Below are positions 166-24,728 of a stretch of DNA of 64,000 nucleotides, piece after piece. Under the pieces are notes generated by a model. It ran no database searches. It had not been told where the DNA came from and worked only from the letters and a program-made list of their open reading frames with translations. Within the stretch, counting starts at the first letter, position 1; the number at the start of each line of letters is the position of its first letter. The stretch is from an uncultured Lentisphaerota bacterium (GTDB taxonomy: Bacteria; Verrucomicrobiota; Kiritimatiellia; RFP12; UBA1067): contig ONVK01000001.1 in NCBI GenBank assembly GCA_900321255.1, positions 16,907 to 80,906 of the forward strand, written 5' to 3'. A program made the translations under genes and the position numbers.

Positions 166-240
166 TCGGGCGTGGCGCAGTGGTAGCGCAGTTGACTGTT
201 AATCAATTGGTCGCTGGTTCGAATCCAGCCGCCCGAGCCA
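166..240 (+). tRNA. tRNA-Asn (anticodon GTT)
   Basis: Cloverleaf read by eye: acceptor TCGGGCG/CGCCCGA, D-arm GCGC/AGTGGTAGCGC, anticodon loop CTGTTAA, T-arm GGTTCGAATCC, encoded CCA. Confidence 0.85.
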
Positions 241-265: not shown

Positions 266-615
266 GGGGGTGATCCGGTTTCGACGGGACGCGTTGAGGT
301 CGGGTTGCGCGTCGTGGATCCTCGTTGGCCACGTAAAAAACGAGGAAAAAAAGTAATTGCGAACAACGATTACGCTCTCGCCGCCTAATTAACGGCCGCG
401 ATGTCGAAGCGCCGATGTCTGCTGAGCGCCGAGGCATAATTTAGCAGGCCACGCTGCAGGGCTCTCCGCTCGGGCGCTGCAGGGTGCCGAACCGAACGGA
501 TGGAAGGGGATAAGCCCGGACGTCGGCGTACTCCTTCCGAGACCAAAGGCGCCATACACGCGTAGAAGCTCGGTTGATTCCGTTTCGGACAGGGGTTCGA
601 CTCCCCTCACCTCCA
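266..615 (+). ncRNA. ssrA: tmRNA (ssrA), tag peptide ANNDYALAA
   Basis: 5' end GGGGGTGATCCGGTTTCGACGGG matches the tmRNA tRNA-like domain. Internal reading frame gcg aac aac gat tac gct ctc gcc gcc taa at about 358-387. 3' T-arm GGGGTTCGACTCCCC plus acceptor CACCTCC pairing with the 5' end. Six-frame ORFs 389..610 and 441..668 overlapping it are spurious. Confidence 0.85.
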
Positions 616-661: not shown

Positions 662-871
662 ATGACAAAGATCCTGCTCAAAAGGGTTCTGCCGTCCGTC
701 GTCGGACTGGTGCTTGTGGTTCCGGGCGCACTGTGGCTCTACGGCTACATCGGCGTGAAGGCCGGCTGGGTCGGCCCGACCGATGTCCCCGGGCTAAACG
801 CGGTCTCGCGCAGCGGCGCTGATGCGGCCGGCGGCGTGACCGGGGCGACCAAGGCGAAACTCGGCCTCTGA
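662..871 (+). CDS. small hydrophobic (membrane) protein, hypothetical
   Basis: 69-aa ORF with a strong AGGAGG Shine-Dalgarno 7 nt upstream and a hydrophobic N-terminus VLPSVVGLVLVVPGALWLYGYI. Confidence 0.45.
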   Translation: MTKILLKRVLPSVVGLVLVVPGALWLYGYIGVKAGWVGPTDVPGLNAVSRSGADAAGGVTGATKAKLGL

Positions 872-879
872 CAATCGGC

Positions 880-1413
880 ATGAGAGCGGTGAAAAGACTG
901 TTCGCGGCGGCGCTGCTGGCGCTTTCGCCGCTGGGGCTCTTTGCGCATGACGACGCGTCGTCCGTCGCAATACGGCCCGCCGCGCCGGCGGCAGTGGCGA
1001 CGAATGCGTCGTCCCATGCCGTCAGGATCGTAGTCACCAACGTAGCTCCGCAGACGGCGGCGAAGGACGCGAAGAAGGCCGCGATAGCGGAGGACGGGTC
1101 GTATACGAGCCGCGAGCAGGTGGCGCTCTATCTCAGGACATACCGCAAGCTCCCGAAGAACTTCATGACGAAGGCGGAAGCGCGCCGGCTTGGCTGGGTC
1201 GGCGGTCCCCTTGAGCCTTTCGCCCCCGGGAAGTCCATTGGCGGTGACCATTTCGGGAACTACGAGCGAAAGCTTCCGTTCGGGCGATACAGGGAGTGCG
1301 ACATCGACACGCGTGGTCGTCCGCGCGGCTCCAAGCGGATAATCTACACAGAGGATGCGAAGCGCATCTACTACACAGACGACCACTACAGGACATTCCA
1401 GGGGGTGCCATGA
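880..1413 (+). CDS. secreted barnase-family guanyl-specific ribonuclease
   Basis: N-terminal signal peptide LFAAALLALSPLGLFA. The C-terminal 110 aa align to Bacillus barnase: YLRTYRKLPKNFMTKAEARRLGWV, APGKSIGGDHFGN.ERKLP, RECDID (catalytic Glu) and DDHYRTF (catalytic His). Confidence 0.85.
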   Translation: MRAVKRLFAAALLALSPLGLFAHDDASSVAIRPAAPAAVATNASSHAVRIVVTNVAPQTAAKDAKKAAIAEDGSYTSREQVALYLRTYRKLPKNFMTKAEARRLGWVGGPLEPFAPGKSIGGDHFGNYERKLPFGRYRECDIDTRGRPRGSKRIIYTEDAKRIYYTDDHYRTFQGVP

Positions 1414-1664
1414 AGAAGAGGGAATACAGGATTGACCTCGGTGGCGTGAGGAGCGCGAGGGCGCTTCACGCACGACTTGACGGGAAGCTGCCGTTTCCCG
1501 AGGGATACGGGCGCAATCTCGACGCGCTGTACGATTTCCTCACGGAGTACGGCCCGCGGCTGCGTATAGTGTTCGAGAACGCGAAAGGAGCGCCGGCGTC
1601 TCTGAAGAGGCTGTGCGCCGACGCCGTGGCGGGAACGCCTGGGCTCGAAATCGTCTTCGCATAG
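1410..1664 (+). CDS. barstar-like ribonuclease inhibitor
   Basis: 85-aa ORF whose ATG overlaps the barnase TGA (ATGA). The motif FPEGYGRNLDALYDFLT matches barstar LPEYYGENLDALWDCLT. The track ORF 1296..1664 is this frame extended upstream. Confidence 0.8.
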   Translation: MKKREYRIDLGGVRSARALHARLDGKLPFPEGYGRNLDALYDFLTEYGPRLRIVFENAKGAPASLKRLCADAVAGTPGLEIVFA

Positions 1665-1716
1665 AGCCCGGTCGGCGGCGCGGGGCGGGGTTCGTCGCAT
1701 GGCGGTCCTTCGGCAG

Positions 1717-1746
1717 TTGCCGAGAGACCGTCCATAATGGTATAAT
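1717..1746 (+). promoter_or_regulatory. sigma70-type promoter (-35 TTGCCG, extended -10 TGGTATAAT)
   Basis: AT-rich TGGTATAAT at about 1738-1746 in a GC-rich background, with TTGCCG 18 bp upstream. The dCMP deaminase ATG lies 10 nt after the -10, implying a near-leaderless mRNA. Confidence 0.5.
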
Positions 1747-1755
1747 ATCAAACCA

Positions 1756-2238
1756 ATGGCCAAAAAGATCAAAGATCCGCGTCCAAGTTGGGACGAGTAC
1801 TTCATGGAGATCGCGACGGTCGTCTCGAAGCGCAGCAACTGCATGCGCAGGAGCGTCGGCGCGGTCGTGATGAAGGACAACCACATCCTCTCAACCGGCT
1901 ACAACGGCACTCCGCGCGGCGTCAAGAACTGCTTCGCCGGCGGCTGCCCGCGCTGCGCGGCAACGACGAAAAGCGGGACCCATCTCGAGGAATGCCTCTG
2001 CACCCACGCCGAGCAGAACGCGATCTGCCAGGCCGCCTACTATGGCAACTCCATCGCTGGCGGCACGATCTACATCACGATTTCTCCTTGCCTCACCTGC
2101 GCGAAGCTAATCATCAACTCCGGCATAAAGGAGGTTGTCTATGGCGGCGACTACGCCTTCATCGACAAGGTGAAGGAGATGTTCAAGGCGGCCGGGGTGA
2201 AGCACAGGAAGTTTAAAGTTCAAAGTTTAAAGTTATAA
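1756..2238 (+). CDS. comEB: deoxycytidylate (dCMP) deaminase
   Basis: CMP/dCMP deaminase zinc motifs CTHAEQNA and PCLTCAKLI, and N-terminal RPSWDEYFM typical of dCMP deaminase. Confidence 0.85.
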   Translation: MAKKIKDPRPSWDEYFMEIATVVSKRSNCMRRSVGAVVMKDNHILSTGYNGTPRGVKNCFAGGCPRCAATTKSGTHLEECLCTHAEQNAICQAAYYGNSIAGGTIYITISPCLTCAKLIINSGIKEVVYGGDYAFIDKVKEMFKAAGVKHRKFKVQSLKL

Positions 2239-16020: not shown

Positions 16021-16998
16021 ATGAAGATCAAGTTCATCGCCAACATCAAGGGGATATACCTTGGATATTCGTTTGAACCTTCCGATGTAGTGACCATTGG
16101 GCGCGAGATCGGAAATACCATTGCGCCGATAAACGTTGACGGCTTTTCGCGTCATCACGCGCGCATCTTCTTCAAGGACGGTGCATGGTATGTCGAAGAC
16201 GTCGGCAGCACGAACGGCACCTACCGCAACCGCGTGAAGGTCGAAGCCCCGACAAAGATCGAGAAGGGTGATTCGATCAGGTGCGGGCTAATGGAACTTG
16301 CCTCGTTTGAATTCGAACCCTCTGCCGCGCCCGCTCCTGTCACCGCGGCCGAGCCGCCGAAGCCGGTTGCACCGGTCAAGCCCACCGAGACAGTCAAGCC
16401 CATTGAGCCGCCGAAGCCCATTGCGCCGGTCAAGCCCATTGAACCGCCGAAGCCGGTTGCACCGGTCAAGCCAGTCGAGCCGCCAAAGACAGTCGCGCCT
16501 GTCAAGCCGGCGGAGCCAGTTGCCCAGCTTGAGCCAGTGACGCCGCTTGACCCCGTCACGCCTCTAGAACCCGTCGCGCCTCTAGAACCCGTCGCGCCGC
16601 TTGAGCCAGTGACGCCGCTTGAGCCAGTTGCCCAGCTTGAGCCAGTGACGCCGCTTGAGCCGATTACGCCGCTCGAGCCGATCACGCCGCTTGAACCGGT
16701 CGAGGAACTCAAGCCTGTTTCACCTGTGAAGACGGAGAAGGTCCCAACCCCTGTTGCCGCCCCGGCGACGCTTCGCCGTCCGACGATACCGGGGCTGAAG
16801 CCCGGCCTCAAGCCAGGGCTCAAGCTTCCCCAGAAGGGCGGGGCGCTCCCCGCCGGCCTGAAGCTCCCGCCCAAGGGAGGTGCGCTTCCGACGGGCCTCA
16901 AGCTTCCGCCAAAGGGGGGTGCGCTCCCGACGGGCCTCAAGCTTCCGCCCAAGCCCGGTCTCAAGCCCGGTCTCAAGGTCCCCGGCAAGGGCGTATGA
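16021..16998 (+). CDS. FHA-domain protein with proline-rich tandem-repeat tail
   Basis: An N-terminal 100 aa FHA fold ([24 protein letters not shown]). This is followed by repeats [18 protein letters not shown] (x10) and [13 protein letters not shown] (x3). Confidence 0.7.
16330..16990 (+). repeat. coding tandem repeats (three families: about 33-bp, 18-bp and 39-bp units)
   Basis: Directly visible periodicity in the DNA and in the translated PKPxAPVKP / LEPVTP / [13 protein letters not shown] units. Confidence 0.8.
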
Positions 16999-17024
16999 AG
17001 ACTTTTTTGAAAAGGAGTAACGAA

Positions 17025-20000
17025 ATGAACATCAAGATTATTGTTGCTGTTTCGGCGTTTGCCGCCCTCTCTCCGCTTGCTGTCCGTGCTGATCTCGTCT
17101 CGCGCGACATCGGCGATCCCGAGATGAACGCATGGGAGCCAGGCACGTGGGTCACGTGCGGCGGCGATGTGATCACGCTCGACGAGAGGCCCGCCGATGC
17201 GCCGACGAAGGCCAAGTCCATCCGCTTCGAGACGCGCTACGGCGACCATGCCTTTGGCGGGTGGAGCGCGTCTCCGAAGAAAAACGTCCTCCCCGGGAAG
17301 CCGGCCAAGTTCACCGGCTGGGCGAGGCTCGGCAACGACGATTCGTGGGGGATGTCGTTTGAGTTCGTGGACGCAAACACCAACAAGTTCAACATCTCCA
17401 TGCATGCGCCGGGCAACCCCAAGGGCAAGTTCACCCTGACGCGCGAGTGGCAGAAGTTCGAGATGACCTTCCCCGAAACCGTCGGCAAGAACAAGTCGCC
17501 GATCGCATATCCGGTCAAGTTCGAGTCCGTGAGCCAGAACAACTGGGGAGACCGCAACTCGCCGCCCAAGACGCGCCAGTTCGACATGTACGACTTCCGC
17601 CTGTGGACCGACATGGAAGGCGTCGCCGACAGGCCCTTCGAGCTGTCGGTCAAGTATCCCGTCGTCGGCAACACGTTCTACTACGCCGAGGGAGACCCGG
17701 CGATCGTCGTTTCCGCCGGCAGCTGGATCGGCGAGGAGAAGACGCTCACCTTCAGGGCGAAGGCGGTGTCTGCGGCAGGCGAGGAGAGGAAAATCGACAT
17801 TCCGCCGCTGAAGGTCCTCGACGGCGCGAGCCAGATGGTGAAGCTTCCATTTGACGAGCCTGGCGCGTACAAGGTCGAGATAGCCGTCGACGGCTTCCCG
17901 AAGCCGTTTGTCGAGAAGTCCCGCTACGTCGTCTGTCTCCATCCGCGGGATCTGACCGACGAGGAGAAGGAGGCGTCGCCATACGGAATCAATGTCCATG
18001 GCGGCGGATATGTCGGCTATGAGAAGTTCGCCCGCCTCGGCTTCACCTGGGTGCGCGACTATGCTTACAACTTCCACTGGATGCGCCGCGCGCGCGGCGA
18101 CGGCAAATACGCCGGCTGGCCGTGGTACCCCAAGATCGTCAAGGCCGCGGAGGATGTCGGCATCAAGACGCTTCCGTGCCTGATGGGGGCAGTCGAGATC
18201 AAGCGGGACGCGACAGGCGAAAACGATCCAAGCTATACGCCGAACAAGGAATGGCGCCGCCAGATGGCGCTCGCCGTCTCGACCTTCGACACGCTGACTG
18301 CGTTCGAGCTCGACAACGAGGTGGACGGTCTCATGTTCAAGACGCTCGACGGCTACGGGCGCTACTGCCAGGCGTTCGGCGACATCGTCAAGGCCGCTCG
18401 TCCCGATGCGCGCGCCGTGGCGCCGGGCCTTGCCGGCATCTATGTCGAGCAGTCGCAGAAGCTCGTCGAGAAGGGGTATTTCCGCAACATCGACGTGGTG
18501 AACGGCCATCGCTACTGCGGCAAGGACGGCCCTGAATACTCAAAGGCTAACCTCAACACCGGCATGAGCGAGGCGAAGCCGGCGTACCTGCGCGACGTGT
18601 GGCGCCACTGGAAGAAGGCGGCGACGTGCGACGGCAAGTTCCGCGAGCTCTGGGTCACCGAATGGGGCTGGGACACGCTCGCAGGGCAGCCCGTGAGCGA
18701 GTGGGAGCAGGCCGCGTACCTCCAGCGCAAGTGGGTGCTCGCGATGGGCAACGGAGTCGAGAAGATGTTCTGGTACTGGTACTACGACGACGACACCGAC
18801 ACGCCCAACTACTTCTTCGCCGGCTGCGGCATCTTCGACCGCAGGCGCAACCCGAAGCCGTCTGCCGCGTCCTTCGCCGCGCTGAGGACGTTCATCCCCG
18901 GAAAGTACGAGTACATCGGCACGGCCAACCTCGGGCCCAACCACATGGTCCAGATCGTAAGGGCCGACGGCAAGGTCGTCGCCCTTGCCTACAAGATCAA
19001 GAAGGACGGGCCGGACCTCGAAATCAAGGACGAGAAGGCGGAGCTTGTCACAGACATGTTCGGACGCGAGCTCAAGGCCTCGAACAGCCGCAAGCTCGAC
19101 ATCGCGCCCACGTGGTACGTCGGCCTCGACGAGGACAGCGACTGGCTCAAGCAGTGCCCGATCGACATCGAGAGCGACTTCTACGTACGCAACGTCGGCG
19201 GCGAGCCGGTCCGCGTCGAGGTCGCGCAGCCCGGCAAGTTCGAGTACTCCGTCGAGCCGCCGAAGGGCTGGACGGTCGAGAAGAAGCCGTACGGCTTCGA
19301 CGTGACTGGGCCTGCGGGGCTCAAGCGCGGCAATACGTCGTTCACCGTCACCGGCAAGAACGGCAACGTCTCGAAGACGATGGCGATCGAGGTCGACATC
19401 GTGCCGCAGGCATACGCTAAGTCCAGGGCCGCGAATTTCGACGGCGCGTTCACGATGAACGTCACGAACCAGTCCGCCGACGACCAGGACTTCACCGTCA
19501 AGGCGGAGCTCCCGAAGGGCTGGTCGATCGAGCCCGCCGTCACGCAGACGGGTGTGCTCAAGCCCGAGGAGACGAAGACGCTTGACTTCAAGCTCGTGAA
19601 GTCCGCACCGGTGGATCCGGCTGCGAAGGGCGCGGCGAATCCGAAGCTGTCGATCGTCAACGCGAAGGGGATGCAGGTCGACTACGCGCCTGTAATCCCG
19701 CGCACCTGGACGATGCGCCGCATTGACCTTTCGAAGATAAAGTTCGACGGCGACCTCTCGGATTGGGACGAGCGCTACCGCGTAAACAGCTTCATGATCG
19801 GGCCGAACGGCGACAAGGACCCGACCAAGGTCTACATCGCCTACTGCGACGAAGGACTCGTCGCGGCGCTCGACGTCGACGACTCGCGCTGCTTTACGGC
19901 CGACCCCGGCAGCTTCTGGCGCGCGGCCGACTGCCTCGAGATCATGATTACGACTCCAGACGGCGTCAAGTTCAAGCCAGACGAGCCGTGGTCGCTCTTC

Positions 20001-20387
20001 GACCACCAGATGTGGTTCTGCCCGATGCTGAAGGACAAGAACGTGTTCTGCGGCTACTGGGGCAACTGCAAGGGGCAGAAGGTCTACAAGAAGTCTGGCG
20101 ATGACGTCAACGCGAAGTGGAATGGAAGCGCGGCGAAGTGCGTGCCGGACGACTCCCGCTCCGGCCTCGTGAAGACGCCGCGCGGCTACCGCGCCGAGAT
20201 GTTTGTCCCGGCCGCACAGCTCACTGGATGGGAGAAGATGAAGCCGGGCGCCACGATCGGCCTCTCGTTCACTCTCGTCGTCGAAGACCTCAAGAACTCG
20301 CAGCACGAGCTCTACTGGCCGAACTCCAAGCGCGACAACCTCATGAAGAAGCCGTGGACTTGGGCGAAGGTCAAGCTCGAGAAGTAA
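17025..20387 (+). CDS. secreted large glycoside hydrolase (TIM-barrel, clan GH-A-like) with C-terminal CBM9-like domain
   Basis: Signal peptide [22 protein letters not shown] with an AAAGGAG RBS. The central region has a NEVDG / LWVTEWGWD (acid/base and nucleophile-like) pattern. The C-terminal [11 protein letters not shown]...DEG module resembles CBM family 9. Family assignment uncertain. Confidence 0.65.
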
Positions 20388-22370: not shown

Positions 22371-24728
22371 ATGGACATGGTAACACTGCTGCTCGCGGCG
22401 ACAATCGCATTGCCGCCATTTGGAGACGTAAAGGTGGTCGACGAAATCGACTGCACCAAGTCGGATCACCGCTTCGCGGACTGGCCTAAGGGCTCGAGCC
22501 GCGTGGAGAAGGTCCTCGGCAAACCCTGCCGAGTTCTCGACGTGCAGTCGGAAACGGCGTCCTACCTCGACTGGCGACTTGGCGAGGGCAAGGGGCTCAA
22601 GCCAAACGCCGCATACGTCGTCGTGATCGAGTATCCCGACGACAAGCCGCGCGCGTTCCATGTCCGCAACTACGGCAACAACTCGCGTCGCTCGTTCTAC
22701 ACCGGGCGTTCCAACGGGGACGCCTTCGAGGGCCCGATCGTCCACCACAAGCCAGAGTCGCTGAACCTTCCGCAGTCCGGCAAGTACGAGAAGTGGACGT
22801 CGCTTACCTTCCTCGGCGAGAGGGCCGCGAACCGCCGCGATCTCGGGAAGGACATGGCCGAGAAGACCGGCGAGAAGCAGCTGCTCGACATCGCTACCGA
22901 CGGCTTTGAGGTCGCCATCTCGCAGTACAAGCGCCCATGGCACCCCTGCTCCGAGGGAATTGCCGTCTCGCGCATCCAGCTCTGCGAGATCCTCGACGAG
23001 AAGGCGGCGTGGGCCAAGCTTAACCTGCCGCCCGCCCCGCTGCCGCGGCGCCACATCTTCTGGCGCGAGGAGATGAGCGACGGTGTCATGGCAAAGGACA
23101 GTCTCTGCCCCGGCAACGGCGGTCTTGACTGGATCGAGCAGAAGTTCCGCGCGATGAAGATCTTCGGGCAGAACACGTACTGCAAGGACCTCCTCGAATT
23201 CGGCCACAACCAGCACTGGGACTGCCACTGGAAGCACGGCAAGCCTGGCGGAAAGTCGTTCAAGTGGATGTGGGCGTGCGACGCCTACTACGCCGATCTC
23301 TGGTCGAAGATCGTCTCGCTTGCCGTGGAGAAGTACGGGTTCGACCTCCTTCCCTACTACGAGTACGGCGGGGCGGCCGGTGATCCCAAGGAGGCGCTCG
23401 GCCCCCAGAAGCGCGCCGAACCGCTCGACATCGACAACAAGCCCGACCGCAAGGCGCGGGGCGCGAACTACACGCACATCTGGTGGTCCGAGGGCAAGCT
23501 CCGCGTCGACATCACCGACCCCGACACTCTCGAAGAGCTCAAGTACATACTCGAAGGCACGATACTCCGCTACAAGGACCTGGTCGACAAGGGGGCCTTC
23601 GTCGGCGCGCTGATGCGCCCGCGTCCCGGCCACTGGGCGATCAGCTTCTCCGACAAGACGCGCGCGCGCTTCGCGAAGGAGGAGAACGGCGGCAGGCCCG
23701 TGTCGCGCGCGGACATCAAGAAGGACAAGGCGCTTTACAACAAGTACATCGCCTGGTACGGCAAGAAGCGCGCGCAGTTCATGGACGAGATACGCAAATA
23801 CCTTGAGGAGAACGGCGTCAAGAACGCGATCTCCATCCTCGAGAACGACGATTCCGAGACCGGCTATCCCCTTGCGGACGGCGGCAGCATGACGACCGAC
23901 GACCTCGCCTACTGGAAGGAGAAGCTCCCCGGCAAGAAGATCGTCGACGTCAACGACCCGAGCGTCGTCGGGCAGCATCGCTACCTCAAGGCGCTCAAGA
24001 CCCCGGCCGGCACGTGGGGCCCGTGGGAATGGCAGCACGCCTCGCCTGCCTGCGACCCTGAGCACTACAACGACCTCAGGAACGTCTGGATAGCGCTGCC
24101 GTTCCACGCTCTCTTCACCGTGACCGACCCCGAGTGCCTCTCCGCGTTTGCAAACGGCAACGGCACGGCGACGCTGATTCGCCACTACGACCTCAACGAA
24201 GGCACCTTCGACAGCGAGCCACTCCTCGATCCTAACGGCAATCCCGTCAAGAACGGGAAAGGCGAAGTCGAGAAGAGGCCGATCACCGGCTACGCGATGG
24301 CCGACTGGGAACACGCCGGGCGCGCCTGCATGATCGCCGAGGTCAACGCGATGGCGAACGGCGATCCCGTGAACCTCGGCTACCTGATGGGCTCGAACTA
24401 CACGCGCGGCTTCCCCGTGCCGGTCAGGGAGTTCAACCTGAACTTCCTCGCGCTTCCCGCGCTTCCCTCGAAGGTGGTTAAGGGCGCGTGTTCCGATCCT
24501 GAGGTCGTCCTGCGCGAGATCGACTGCTCGAAGCTCGGAGTCAAGGCGAAGTACTATGCCCTTGTCCACACCGGCTGGAAGGAGAAGAACGACGTCAAGG
24601 TCAAGATCCCCGGGGCGAAGGGCGAAGTCGAGTTCGCCGCCTACGGCAAGTCCAGGGCCCTGAAGAACGGCGTGCTCGAGTTCAAGACTCTCAAGCCGTT
24701 TCAGCTCCTTGCGATCAAGTCCAAGTAA
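22371..24728 (+). CDS. hypothetical secreted protein (785 aa), possible carbohydrate-active enzyme
   Basis: Protein-like composition rich in W/Y/K/N; the antisense 802-aa ORF has GC-artifact composition. N-terminal hydrophobic segment; no family recognised by eye. Confidence 0.6.
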   Translation: MDMVTLLLAATIALPPFGDVKVVDEIDCTKSDHRFADWPKGSSRVEKVLGKPCRVLDVQSETASYLDWRLGEGKGLKPNAAYVVVIEYPDDKPRAFHVRNYGNNSRRSFYTGRSNGDAFEGPIVHHKPESLNLPQSGKYEKWTSLTFLGERAANRRDLGKDMAEKTGEKQLLDIATDGFEVAISQYKRPWHPCSEGIAVSRIQLCEILDEKAAWAKLNLPPAPLPRRHIFWREEMSDGVMAKDSLCPGNGGLDWIEQKFRAMKIFGQNTYCKDLLEFGHNQHWDCHWKHGKPGGKSFKWMWACDAYYADLWSKIVSLAVEKYGFDLLPYYEYGGAAGDPKEALGPQKRAEPLDIDNKPDRKARGANYTHIWWSEGKLRVDITDPDTLEELKYILEGTILRYKDLVDKGAFVGALMRPRPGHWAISFSDKTRARFAKEENGGRPVSRADIKKDKALYNKYIAWYGKKRAQFMDEIRKYLEENGVKNAISILENDDSETGYPLADGGSMTTDDLAYWKEKLPGKKIVDVNDPSVVGQHRYLKALKTPAGTWGPWEWQHASPACDPEHYNDLRNVWIALPFHALFTVTDPECLSAFANGNGTATLIRHYDLNEGTFDSEPLLDPNGNPVKNGKGEVEKRPITGYAMADWEHAGRACMIAEVNAMANGDPVNLGYLMGSNYTRGFPVPVREFNLNFLALPALPSKVVKGACSDPEVVLREIDCSKLGVKAKYYALVHTGWKEKNDVKVKIPGAKGEVEFAAYGKSRALKNGVLEFKTLKPFQLLAIKSK

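Follow-up and report, generated by a model that had tools for sequence, protein, structure and literature searches.

What do the two overlapping genes at positions 880-1664 of this DNA encode, and what do they do for the bacterium that carries them? The DNA is a stretch of 64,000 nucleotides (nt) from an uncultured Lentisphaerota bacterium (contig ONVK01000001.1 of assembly GCA_900321255.1, positions 16,907 to 80,906 of the forward strand); we refer to the whole stretch as the window. An earlier reading, made from the letters alone (the sequence-only reading), proposed a secreted homolog of barnase that is translationally coupled to a barstar-like inhibitor, and suggested that such a pair serves either as an extracellular nuclease or as a contact-independent antibacterial toxin with self-immunity. 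We followed up this proposal with profile searches, structure models, alignments and a comparison of related loci. As far as the molecular part of the explanation is concerned, we hold with high confidence that the locus is a two-gene barnase-barstar cassette, encoding a predicted exported RNase and its predicted cytoplasmic inhibitor, carried chromosomally by a Kiritimatiellae-like bacterium of the gut or rumen. The coordinates and reading frames given by the sequence-only reading were exact; its 85-amino-acid (aa) inhibitor is 84 aa long, the higher figure including the stop codon.

The upstream gene encodes a barnase-type RNase

We searched the upstream open reading frame (ORF) against profile and structure databases. 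It matched the Pfam Ribonuclease family (PF00545) with 65.2 bits over residues 83-176 (gathering score 24). Residues 79-174 matched Bacillus amyloliquefaciens barnase in the PDB with an E-value of 4e-23, followed by weaker matches to binase and RNase Sa. No NCBIfam model matched either this ORF or the barstar ORF. We then used MAFFT to align the protein with its 120 best database homologues as well as with barnase and binase, and found 53 of 105 aligned positions (50%) to be identical to B. amyloliquefaciens barnase. The motifs picked out by the sequence-only reading aligned as it had claimed: the Glu of RECDID falls on barnase Glu73, the His of DDHYRTF on His102, and GKSIGGDHFGN on residues 48-58. 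The equivalents of K98, E139, R149, R153, H169 and Y170 (barnase numbering in Table 1) are invariant in all 120 homologues. Lack of a Pfam match, or loss of the catalytic Glu or His on careful alignment, had been named beforehand as results that would count against the proposal, and we observed neither.

The structure model agrees with this assignment. The catalytic domain in the AlphaFold2 (AF2) model (approximately residues 73-177) superposes on barnase and binase chains with template modelling (TM) scores of 0.77-0.81, normalised to the target, and a root-mean-square deviation of about 2.5 Å, and the modelled domain has the alpha+beta microbial RNase fold. The predicted local distance difference test (pLDDT) score of the domain is only 61-93.

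The guanine-recognition loop is partly kept. It reads F125-G-N-Y-E129 where barnase has Phe56-Ser57-Asn58-Arg59-Glu60; Phe, Asn and Glu are retained, Ser57 is replaced by Gly, and Arg59 is replaced by Tyr128. Of the 120 homologues, 116 have Tyr at this position, making it the clade consensus. At the place equivalent to the barnase guanine loop, RNase T1 reads Asn-Asn-Tyr-Glu. Because Asn and Glu are kept and Tyr occurs as in RNase T1, a guanine preference appears plausible for the window RNase.

The downstream gene encodes a barstar-family inhibitor

The only Pfam match of the downstream ORF was to the Barstar family (PF01337), with 50.9 bits over residues 6-67 (cut-off 23.4), in line with the barstar-like inhibitor that had been proposed. 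Residues 12-47 matched barstar in the PDB with an E-value of 5e-5. The AF2 model (pLDDT 87.6) was compared with known structures using Foldseek, and the top 26 matches were all barstar (TM 0.70-0.78), among them 1bgs_E (E-value 2e-5, TM 0.76). The segment GRNLDALYDFL, singled out earlier as the binding-helix motif, aligns with residues 31-41 of barstar, in helix alpha2. Within it, D38 and D42 correspond to Asp35 and Asp39, the DxxxD pair of that helix. Neither residue varies across 17 close homologues or, of 60 relatives derived from the loci, across the 56 whose sequences are ungapped.

Beyond this pair, barstar Pro27, Tyr30, Gly31, Asn33 and Thr42 are all kept. Other contacts are changed (Tyr29 to Gly, Trp38 to Tyr, Glu76 to Asp, and Glu80 to Gly), Trp44 is replaced by Tyr, and the helix 3 region is about nine residues shorter than in Bacillus barstar. 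Since the core residues are kept and only peripheral contacts differ, the alignment indicates that the central hot spot, in which Asp39 faces Lys27, Arg83, Arg87 and His102, is preserved. By the same alignment, the contact between barnase Arg59 and barstar Glu76 is altered on both partners.

The genes overlap and the pair is conserved

The inhibitor ATG (1410-1412) shares bases with the barnase TGA (1411-1413) in the tetranucleotide ATGA, as the sequence-only reading had pointed out, and a Shine-Dalgarno-like run, AGGGGG (1400-1405), lies four bases 5' of this ATG. Every barstar homologue begins with MKK, which supports ATG 1410 as the start. Two ORFs on the opposite strand (745..1473 and 1386..1886), for which no library search was made, were taken as by-products of the 62% G+C content; the strong family matches belong to the plus-strand ORFs of the same stretch.

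Scanning one genome per species, we recovered at least 463 loci coding for relatives, with the best ones in Kiritimatiellae, followed by Lachnospiraceae, Oscillospiraceae and other Clostridia, mostly in ruminant or other gut samples. A barstar homologue lies directly 3' of the RNase gene on the same strand in 72 of 84 related loci. With refined starts for 54 pairs, a 4-nt overlap is seen in 20 of them and a gap of 0-20 nt in 21; 47 in all have either an overlap or a gap of at most 20 nt, and tight spacing is therefore usual in relatives. The 4-nt overlap also appears in the gene calls of Kiritimatiellae relatives.

Contig DEEZ01000185 (GCA_002350535.1) and several metagenome contigs share 97-98% identity with the window. 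Named homologues of barnase, of barstar and of the 69-aa protein encoded upstream of the pair come from Kiritimatiellae metagenome-assembled genomes (MAGs), and NCBI names of close homologues are 'ribonuclease' and 'barstar family protein'. A literature search for barnase in Kiritimatiellae returned nothing specific. All eight Kiritimatiellae/Verrucomicrobia copies group together as one clade in a neighbour-joining tree. The GC content of the locus is 0.62-0.64, compared with 0.619 for the window, and GC at third codon positions (GC3) is like that of the neighbours. Given the single clade and the host-like GC and GC3, the sequences point to a resident pair rather than a recent import. We considered recent transfer from Clostridia, since Lachnospiraceae copies share 65-69% identity with the catalytic domain, but rejected it in view of the single clade and the native composition.

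Codon comparisons with relatives separate the parts of the locus. In the catalytic domain and in barstar, synonymous-only differences equal or exceed amino-acid changes (38 versus 12 and 33 versus 13 in the comparison with related locus L095), whereas amino-acid-changing differences outnumber synonymous ones in the spacer (19 versus 4 and 40 versus 14). This pattern indicates that the catalytic domain and barstar are under purifying selection and that the spacer is loosely constrained.

We note several variants among the relatives. Some homologues (P0002, P0005, P0008 and P0009) have two tandem barnase domains; in P0005, P0008 and P0009 the catalytic His of the first domain is replaced by Arg, Tyr and Gly, respectively, and that of the second is kept, which suggests that the first copy is inactive and plays another role. 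In one clostridial locus (L078, 382-1536), the gene 3' of barnase is a barstar fused to a glycerophosphodiester phosphodiesterase (GDPD) domain. In two others (L011, 4378-5508, and L016, 4486-5634), barstar is joined to a region of about 280 aa with a sub-threshold, DAPG-hydrolase-like match only. Locus L089 (2242-2990, GCA_017515435.1) carries another barnase-barstar pair; its RNase had no precomputed Pfam match, and was found by a direct PF00545 search, in which it scored 73 bits. In L013 (3794-4608, from a MAG labelled Verrucomicrobia), the barnase ORF opens with 14 codons (MSKIVLKRVVPSSV) that appear to be the start of the 69-aa gene, and an internal deletion in the barstar takes out the YGRNLDA binding helix; the catalytic residues of the L013 barnase are kept. 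This arrangement could be real decay or an assembly artefact.

The RNase carries a predicted export signal and a disordered spacer

We assessed the N-terminus with a sequence heuristic. The n-region contains R2, K5 and R6, and is followed by a hydrophobic core of 16 residues (7-22; best Kyte-Doolittle 10-mer mean 2.44) and an LFA-HDD junction. The segment has no twin-Arg motif and no Cys, which argues that the barnase is not a lipoprotein. Of 116 full-length homologues, 107 have a comparable hydrophobic segment at the N-terminus. The sequence-only reading had called the protein both exported and secreted; the Sec-like signal supports the first of these, and secretion beyond the periplasm does not follow from a Sec signal in a host that looks like a diderm. 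No hydrophobic segment was found in the barstar ORF by the same heuristic, and with no signal peptide the inhibitor is expected to be cytoplasmic. In the AF2 model, residues 1-72 are disordered (pLDDT about 50) and the spacer has no secondary structure. Spacer length varies among homologues.

The pair lies among housekeeping genes

The features of the locus are listed in Table 1. The promoter-like site at 1717-1746 is the best sigma-70-like match in the first 3.2 kb, and suggests that the dCMP deaminase gene downstream of the pair is a separate transcription unit. Two profiles of anti-phage dCTP deaminases, PADLOC dCTPase and NCBIfam NF041025, match the product of this gene through their deaminase domain, the NF041025 match falling well below the NCBIfam cut-off. 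Judged by its sequence, which comes without the rest of the anti-phage dCTP deaminase proteins, it is probably housekeeping.

Table 1. Features of the barnase-barstar locus, with positions in the window
Feature	Position (nt)	Strand	Residues	Details
tRNA-Asn(GTT)	166-240	+		ARAGORN/Rfam
tmRNA	266-615	+		tag peptide ANNDYALAA; ARAGORN/Rfam
Single-pass membrane-protein gene	662..871	+	69 aa	ends 8 nt before the barnase ATG
Pre-barnase coding sequence	880..1413	+	177 codons	ATG 880, TGA 1411-1413
Predicted Sec-type signal peptide	880..945	+	1-22	MRAVKRLFAAALLALSPLGLFA; putative cleavage between LFA and HD; heuristic
Ala/Val/Pro-rich spacer or pro-region	946..1092	+	23-71	
Barnase catalytic domain	1093..1410	+	72-177	MAFFT versus barnase
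Equivalent of barnase Lys27			K98	
Equivalent of barnase Glu73	1294-1296		E139	Glu of RECDID
Equivalent of barnase Arg83			R149	
Equivalent of barnase Arg87			R153	
Equivalent of barnase His102	1384-1386		H169	His of DDHYRTF
Equivalent of barnase Tyr103			Y170	
Putative coupling junction	1400..1413	+		AGGGGG then ATGA, read from the sequence
Barstar-family inhibitor coding sequence	1410..1664	+	84 codons	ATG 1410-1412, TAG 1662-1664
Barstar binding helix		+	N36-Y47	D38 (1521-1523), D42 (1533-1535)
Promoter-like site	1717..1746	+		TTGCCG-18-TATAAT with TG; consensus scan, 10/12 matches
ComEB-like dCMP deaminase gene	1756-2238	+	160 aa	downstream of barstar

After the deaminase gene come genes for triose-phosphate isomerase, a leucine-rich repeat protein, a multidrug and toxic compound extrusion (MATE) transporter and tryptophan synthesis. 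Genes for initiation factor IF-2, UvrB, HrpB, a fucosidase and a glycogen-branching-type enzyme lie farther along the window. Two long ORFs, 16995-20387 (plus strand, 1130 aa) and 22371-24728 (plus strand, 785 aa), had no Pfam match at E<=1e-5, in a region that is otherwise housekeeping. The layout around the pair is kept in the sister genome, and the neighbours are housekeeping genes. In other Kiritimatiellae, the flanks of the pair differ: (i) a reprolysin-like protease and Thi4; (ii) AzlC and an aldo-keto reductase; and (iii) HigB, a helix-turn-helix (HTH) protein and an unknown protein. In the third of these (L015, 3289-3899, from a Kiritimatiellae MAG), the HigB-like toxin and HTH genes, a putative HigBA pair, lie immediately upstream of barnase-barstar. 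A tblastn search of the window found no second copy of barnase or barstar. The pair behaves as a small self-contained cassette, outside polymorphic-toxin or secretion-system loci.

Discussion

We infer how this pair works from the Bacillus paradigm, which it resembles in residues, fold and gene order. Both genes would be carried on one message, and ribosomes terminating on barnase could re-initiate on barstar via the ATGA, since the barstar start lies inside the barnase stop. The pre-barnase, composed of the signal, the disordered spacer of about 50 aa and the RNase domain, would be exported through Sec and cut near Ala22, and the RNase domain would fold outside the cytoplasm. It is predicted to be guanyl-preferring and to cut RNA after guanines via a 2',3'-cyclic phosphate by general acid-base catalysis, in which E139 would serve as base and H169 as acid. 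The phosphate would be held by K98, R149, R153 and Y170, and the guanine read by N127 and E129. In the cytoplasm, the 84-aa barstar would plug the active site of any prematurely folded barnase with its alpha2 helix and D38/D42, so that the producer's own RNA is protected. The enzyme, in the periplasm and possibly beyond, would then degrade free RNA for nucleotide and phosphate scavenging. RNA scavenging is the most likely ecological role, and we favour it over killing because the barnase protein has no uptake or receptor domain.

The window RNase shares with barnase and binase (the N1/T1 microbial RNases of PF00545) the alpha+beta fold and the six catalytic and phosphate-binding residues. As in barnase, the order is signal, pro or spacer segment and catalytic domain, with an inhibitor gene adjacent. 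Several features set it apart: an unstructured and much longer spacer (about 50 aa), FGNYE rather than FSNRE as the guanine loop, three short deletions, a Gram-negative-type host of the Planctomycetes-Verrucomicrobia-Chlamydiae (PVC) group instead of a Bacillus, and an inhibitor gene that overlaps the RNase stop. The inhibitor has in common with barstar (PF01337; PDB 1brs, 1bgs, 1a19) the fold (TM 0.76), the DxxxD pair and the lack of a signal peptide, but it is only about 27% identical, and about nine residues short around helix 3. The barnase and Imm-Barstar proteins of polymorphic-toxin systems belong to the same toxin and immunity families and are encoded in the same toxin-then-immunity order (PMC3482391); unlike them, the window pair lacks RHS and filamentous repeats, has a Sec signal as its sole N-terminal trafficking element, and is not accompanied by arrays of alternative toxin tips or immunity cassettes. 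The category that matches it is the 'simple barnase-barstar gene pairs' of Zhang et al. 2012, which are described as widely distributed, and the tables of that paper list Imm-Barstar in Verrucomicrobia and Planctomycetes (PMC3482391).

Four points weigh against the scheme that we propose. First, the consensus scan detected no promoter or terminator for the pair, and no intrinsic terminator was detected 3' of barstar. Second, the signal peptide was called by a heuristic rather than by a trained predictor. Third, given the changes at barnase Arg59 and at barstar Tyr29, Glu76 and Glu80, together with the shorter helix 3, affinity and specificity cannot be assumed to equal those of the Bacillus pair. 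Fourth, the host, a member of Kiritimatiellae, looks like a diderm, and a Sec signal alone would deliver the enzyme only to the periplasm.

The last of these points leads to a serious alternative, which we consider possible though not the favoured outcome: the RNase may reside in the periplasm and degrade imported or leaked RNA, like E. coli RNase I, and never be released to the medium. It differs from the favoured reading in final location alone, and we saw nothing that speaks directly against it. The Kiritimatiellae origin of the named homologues, which places them in a PVC-group lineage, is consistent with it, as is the presence of a Sec-type signal only; outer-membrane targeting, a lipobox or an autotransporter part were not recognised. 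However, monoderm clostridial relatives have the same layout of signal, spacer and domain, and would release the enzyme.

It is unlikely that the pair is a contact-independent, bacteriocin-like toxin, in which the exported RNase enters and kills competitors and barstar acts as the immunity protein. The toxin-then-immunity order and the tight coupling do resemble bacteriocin and polymorphic-toxin loci (PMC3482391), and the occurrence of the pair in different contexts across Kiritimatiellae lineages would fit a movable two-gene cassette. However, the protein is made up of a signal, a spacer and a catalytic domain and nothing else: it lacks receptor-binding and translocation domains as well as RHS, filamentous and T6/T7 markers. 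The pair is present in the window as a single copy, and its flanks are free of orphan immunity or toxin cassettes. Furthermore, a barstar that has no signal peptide would not protect against a toxin re-entering through the periplasm. The antibacterial use offered by the sequence-only reading thus found no positive support, either in the protein or in polymorphic-toxin features at the locus. We also rejected a polymorphic toxin system as such, based on the one Pfam domain in 177 aa, the housekeeping neighbours and the lack of a second copy in the window.

The 69-aa gene directly upstream, which is probably co-transcribed with barnase, raises the idea of a three-gene module, in which the membrane protein would be a functional partner of the RNase, for example a helper for release or export across the diderm envelope. 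The gene stops 8 nt short of the barnase start in the window, and in the sister genome (L001) its stop overlaps an upstream ATG that is in frame. The gene also recurs near barnase-barstar pairs in differing orders: with yqeY between in L095, after barstar in L015 and L153, and 2 kb after the pair in L089, with the fused remnant in L013. A three-part system would explain this recurrence in several arrangements. However, three loci with both the 69-aa gene and barnase were found through barnase, which biases that sample. In an independent sample of 80 metagenome loci collected via the 69-aa protein, many of them on short contigs (median about 1 kb on each side of the gene), barnase or barstar was nearby in only 2, one of which is from the species of the window. 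A tmRNA was near the gene in 1 of the 80. Most Kiritimatiellae barnase pairs come without the 69-aa gene, and elsewhere this gene precedes an unrelated GH106 enzyme, rhamnosidase or thioredoxin-like protein. We therefore regard a three-gene module, the most novel of the readings considered, as very improbable and, on the 2-of-80 count, do not accept that the 69-aa ORF regularly partners the RNase. A weaker variant of this novel reading is that the gut clade with Arg59 changed to Tyr ('GNYE') might have an altered base specificity or altered inhibitor recognition.

The 69-aa protein is highly conserved in its own right, and its gene is a real one. It has 278 homologues that are 75-97% identical (mean column identity 85%), and among 120 listed, nearly all are 68-70 aa long. 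Synonymous differences exceed amino-acid changes in codon analysis, and no match was found in Pfam, NCBIfam, PADLOC or PHROGs. The gene occurs on Kiritimatiellae-type contigs with highly variable neighbours. We conclude that it encodes a lineage-wide small membrane protein, for which a loose association with the RNase remains conceivable.

The locus is least of all likely to be a cytoplasmic toxin-antitoxin module, an anti-phage abortive-infection pair or the cargo of a tmRNA-integrated island: the tmRNA gene 265 nt upstream of the barnase start (tmRNA genes being classical integration sites) and the HigB/HTH pair beside the barnase pair in L015 would fit such readings, but they are at odds with the export signal on the toxin, with a barstar that lacks any DNA-binding part, and with housekeeping neighbours in a layout that the sister genome shares. 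Type II toxin-antitoxin modules have a cytoplasmic toxin and an antitoxin with a DNA-binding domain, usually encoded first; this class was rejected on the export signal of the toxin, the position of its gene ahead of the inhibitor, and the sole PF01337 match of barstar. A defence system or prophage cargo was rejected on the PADLOC and PHROGs results: PADLOC gave no match for barnase, barstar or the 69-aa ORF, and PHROGs gave one weak family of unknown function, for barstar, and nothing informative. For a genomic island, we looked for repeats of the tmRNA 3' end (last 70 nt) across the whole window and found none longer than 11 nt, and no integrase lies in the flanks of the pair. Neither an att-like repeat nor an integrase marks the tRNA-Asn/tmRNA genes as the site of an integrated element, and an island at the tmRNA was rejected on these grounds and on GC and GC3 typical of the host.

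The window pair is real but ordinary, a textbook barnase-barstar pair; its importance beyond annotation is small, and it does not challenge current understanding. It documents, in rumen and gut Kiritimatiellae, a vertically inherited barnase-type RNase with predicted export and a barstar that is probably co-translated with it. It also draws attention to a large gut clade, shared with Clostridia, in which barnase Arg59 is replaced by Tyr and the barstar side is changed to match. Variant pairs found in nature, like these, could be used as orthogonal barnase/barstar reagents. In the rumen, the enzyme may contribute to extracellular RNA turnover.

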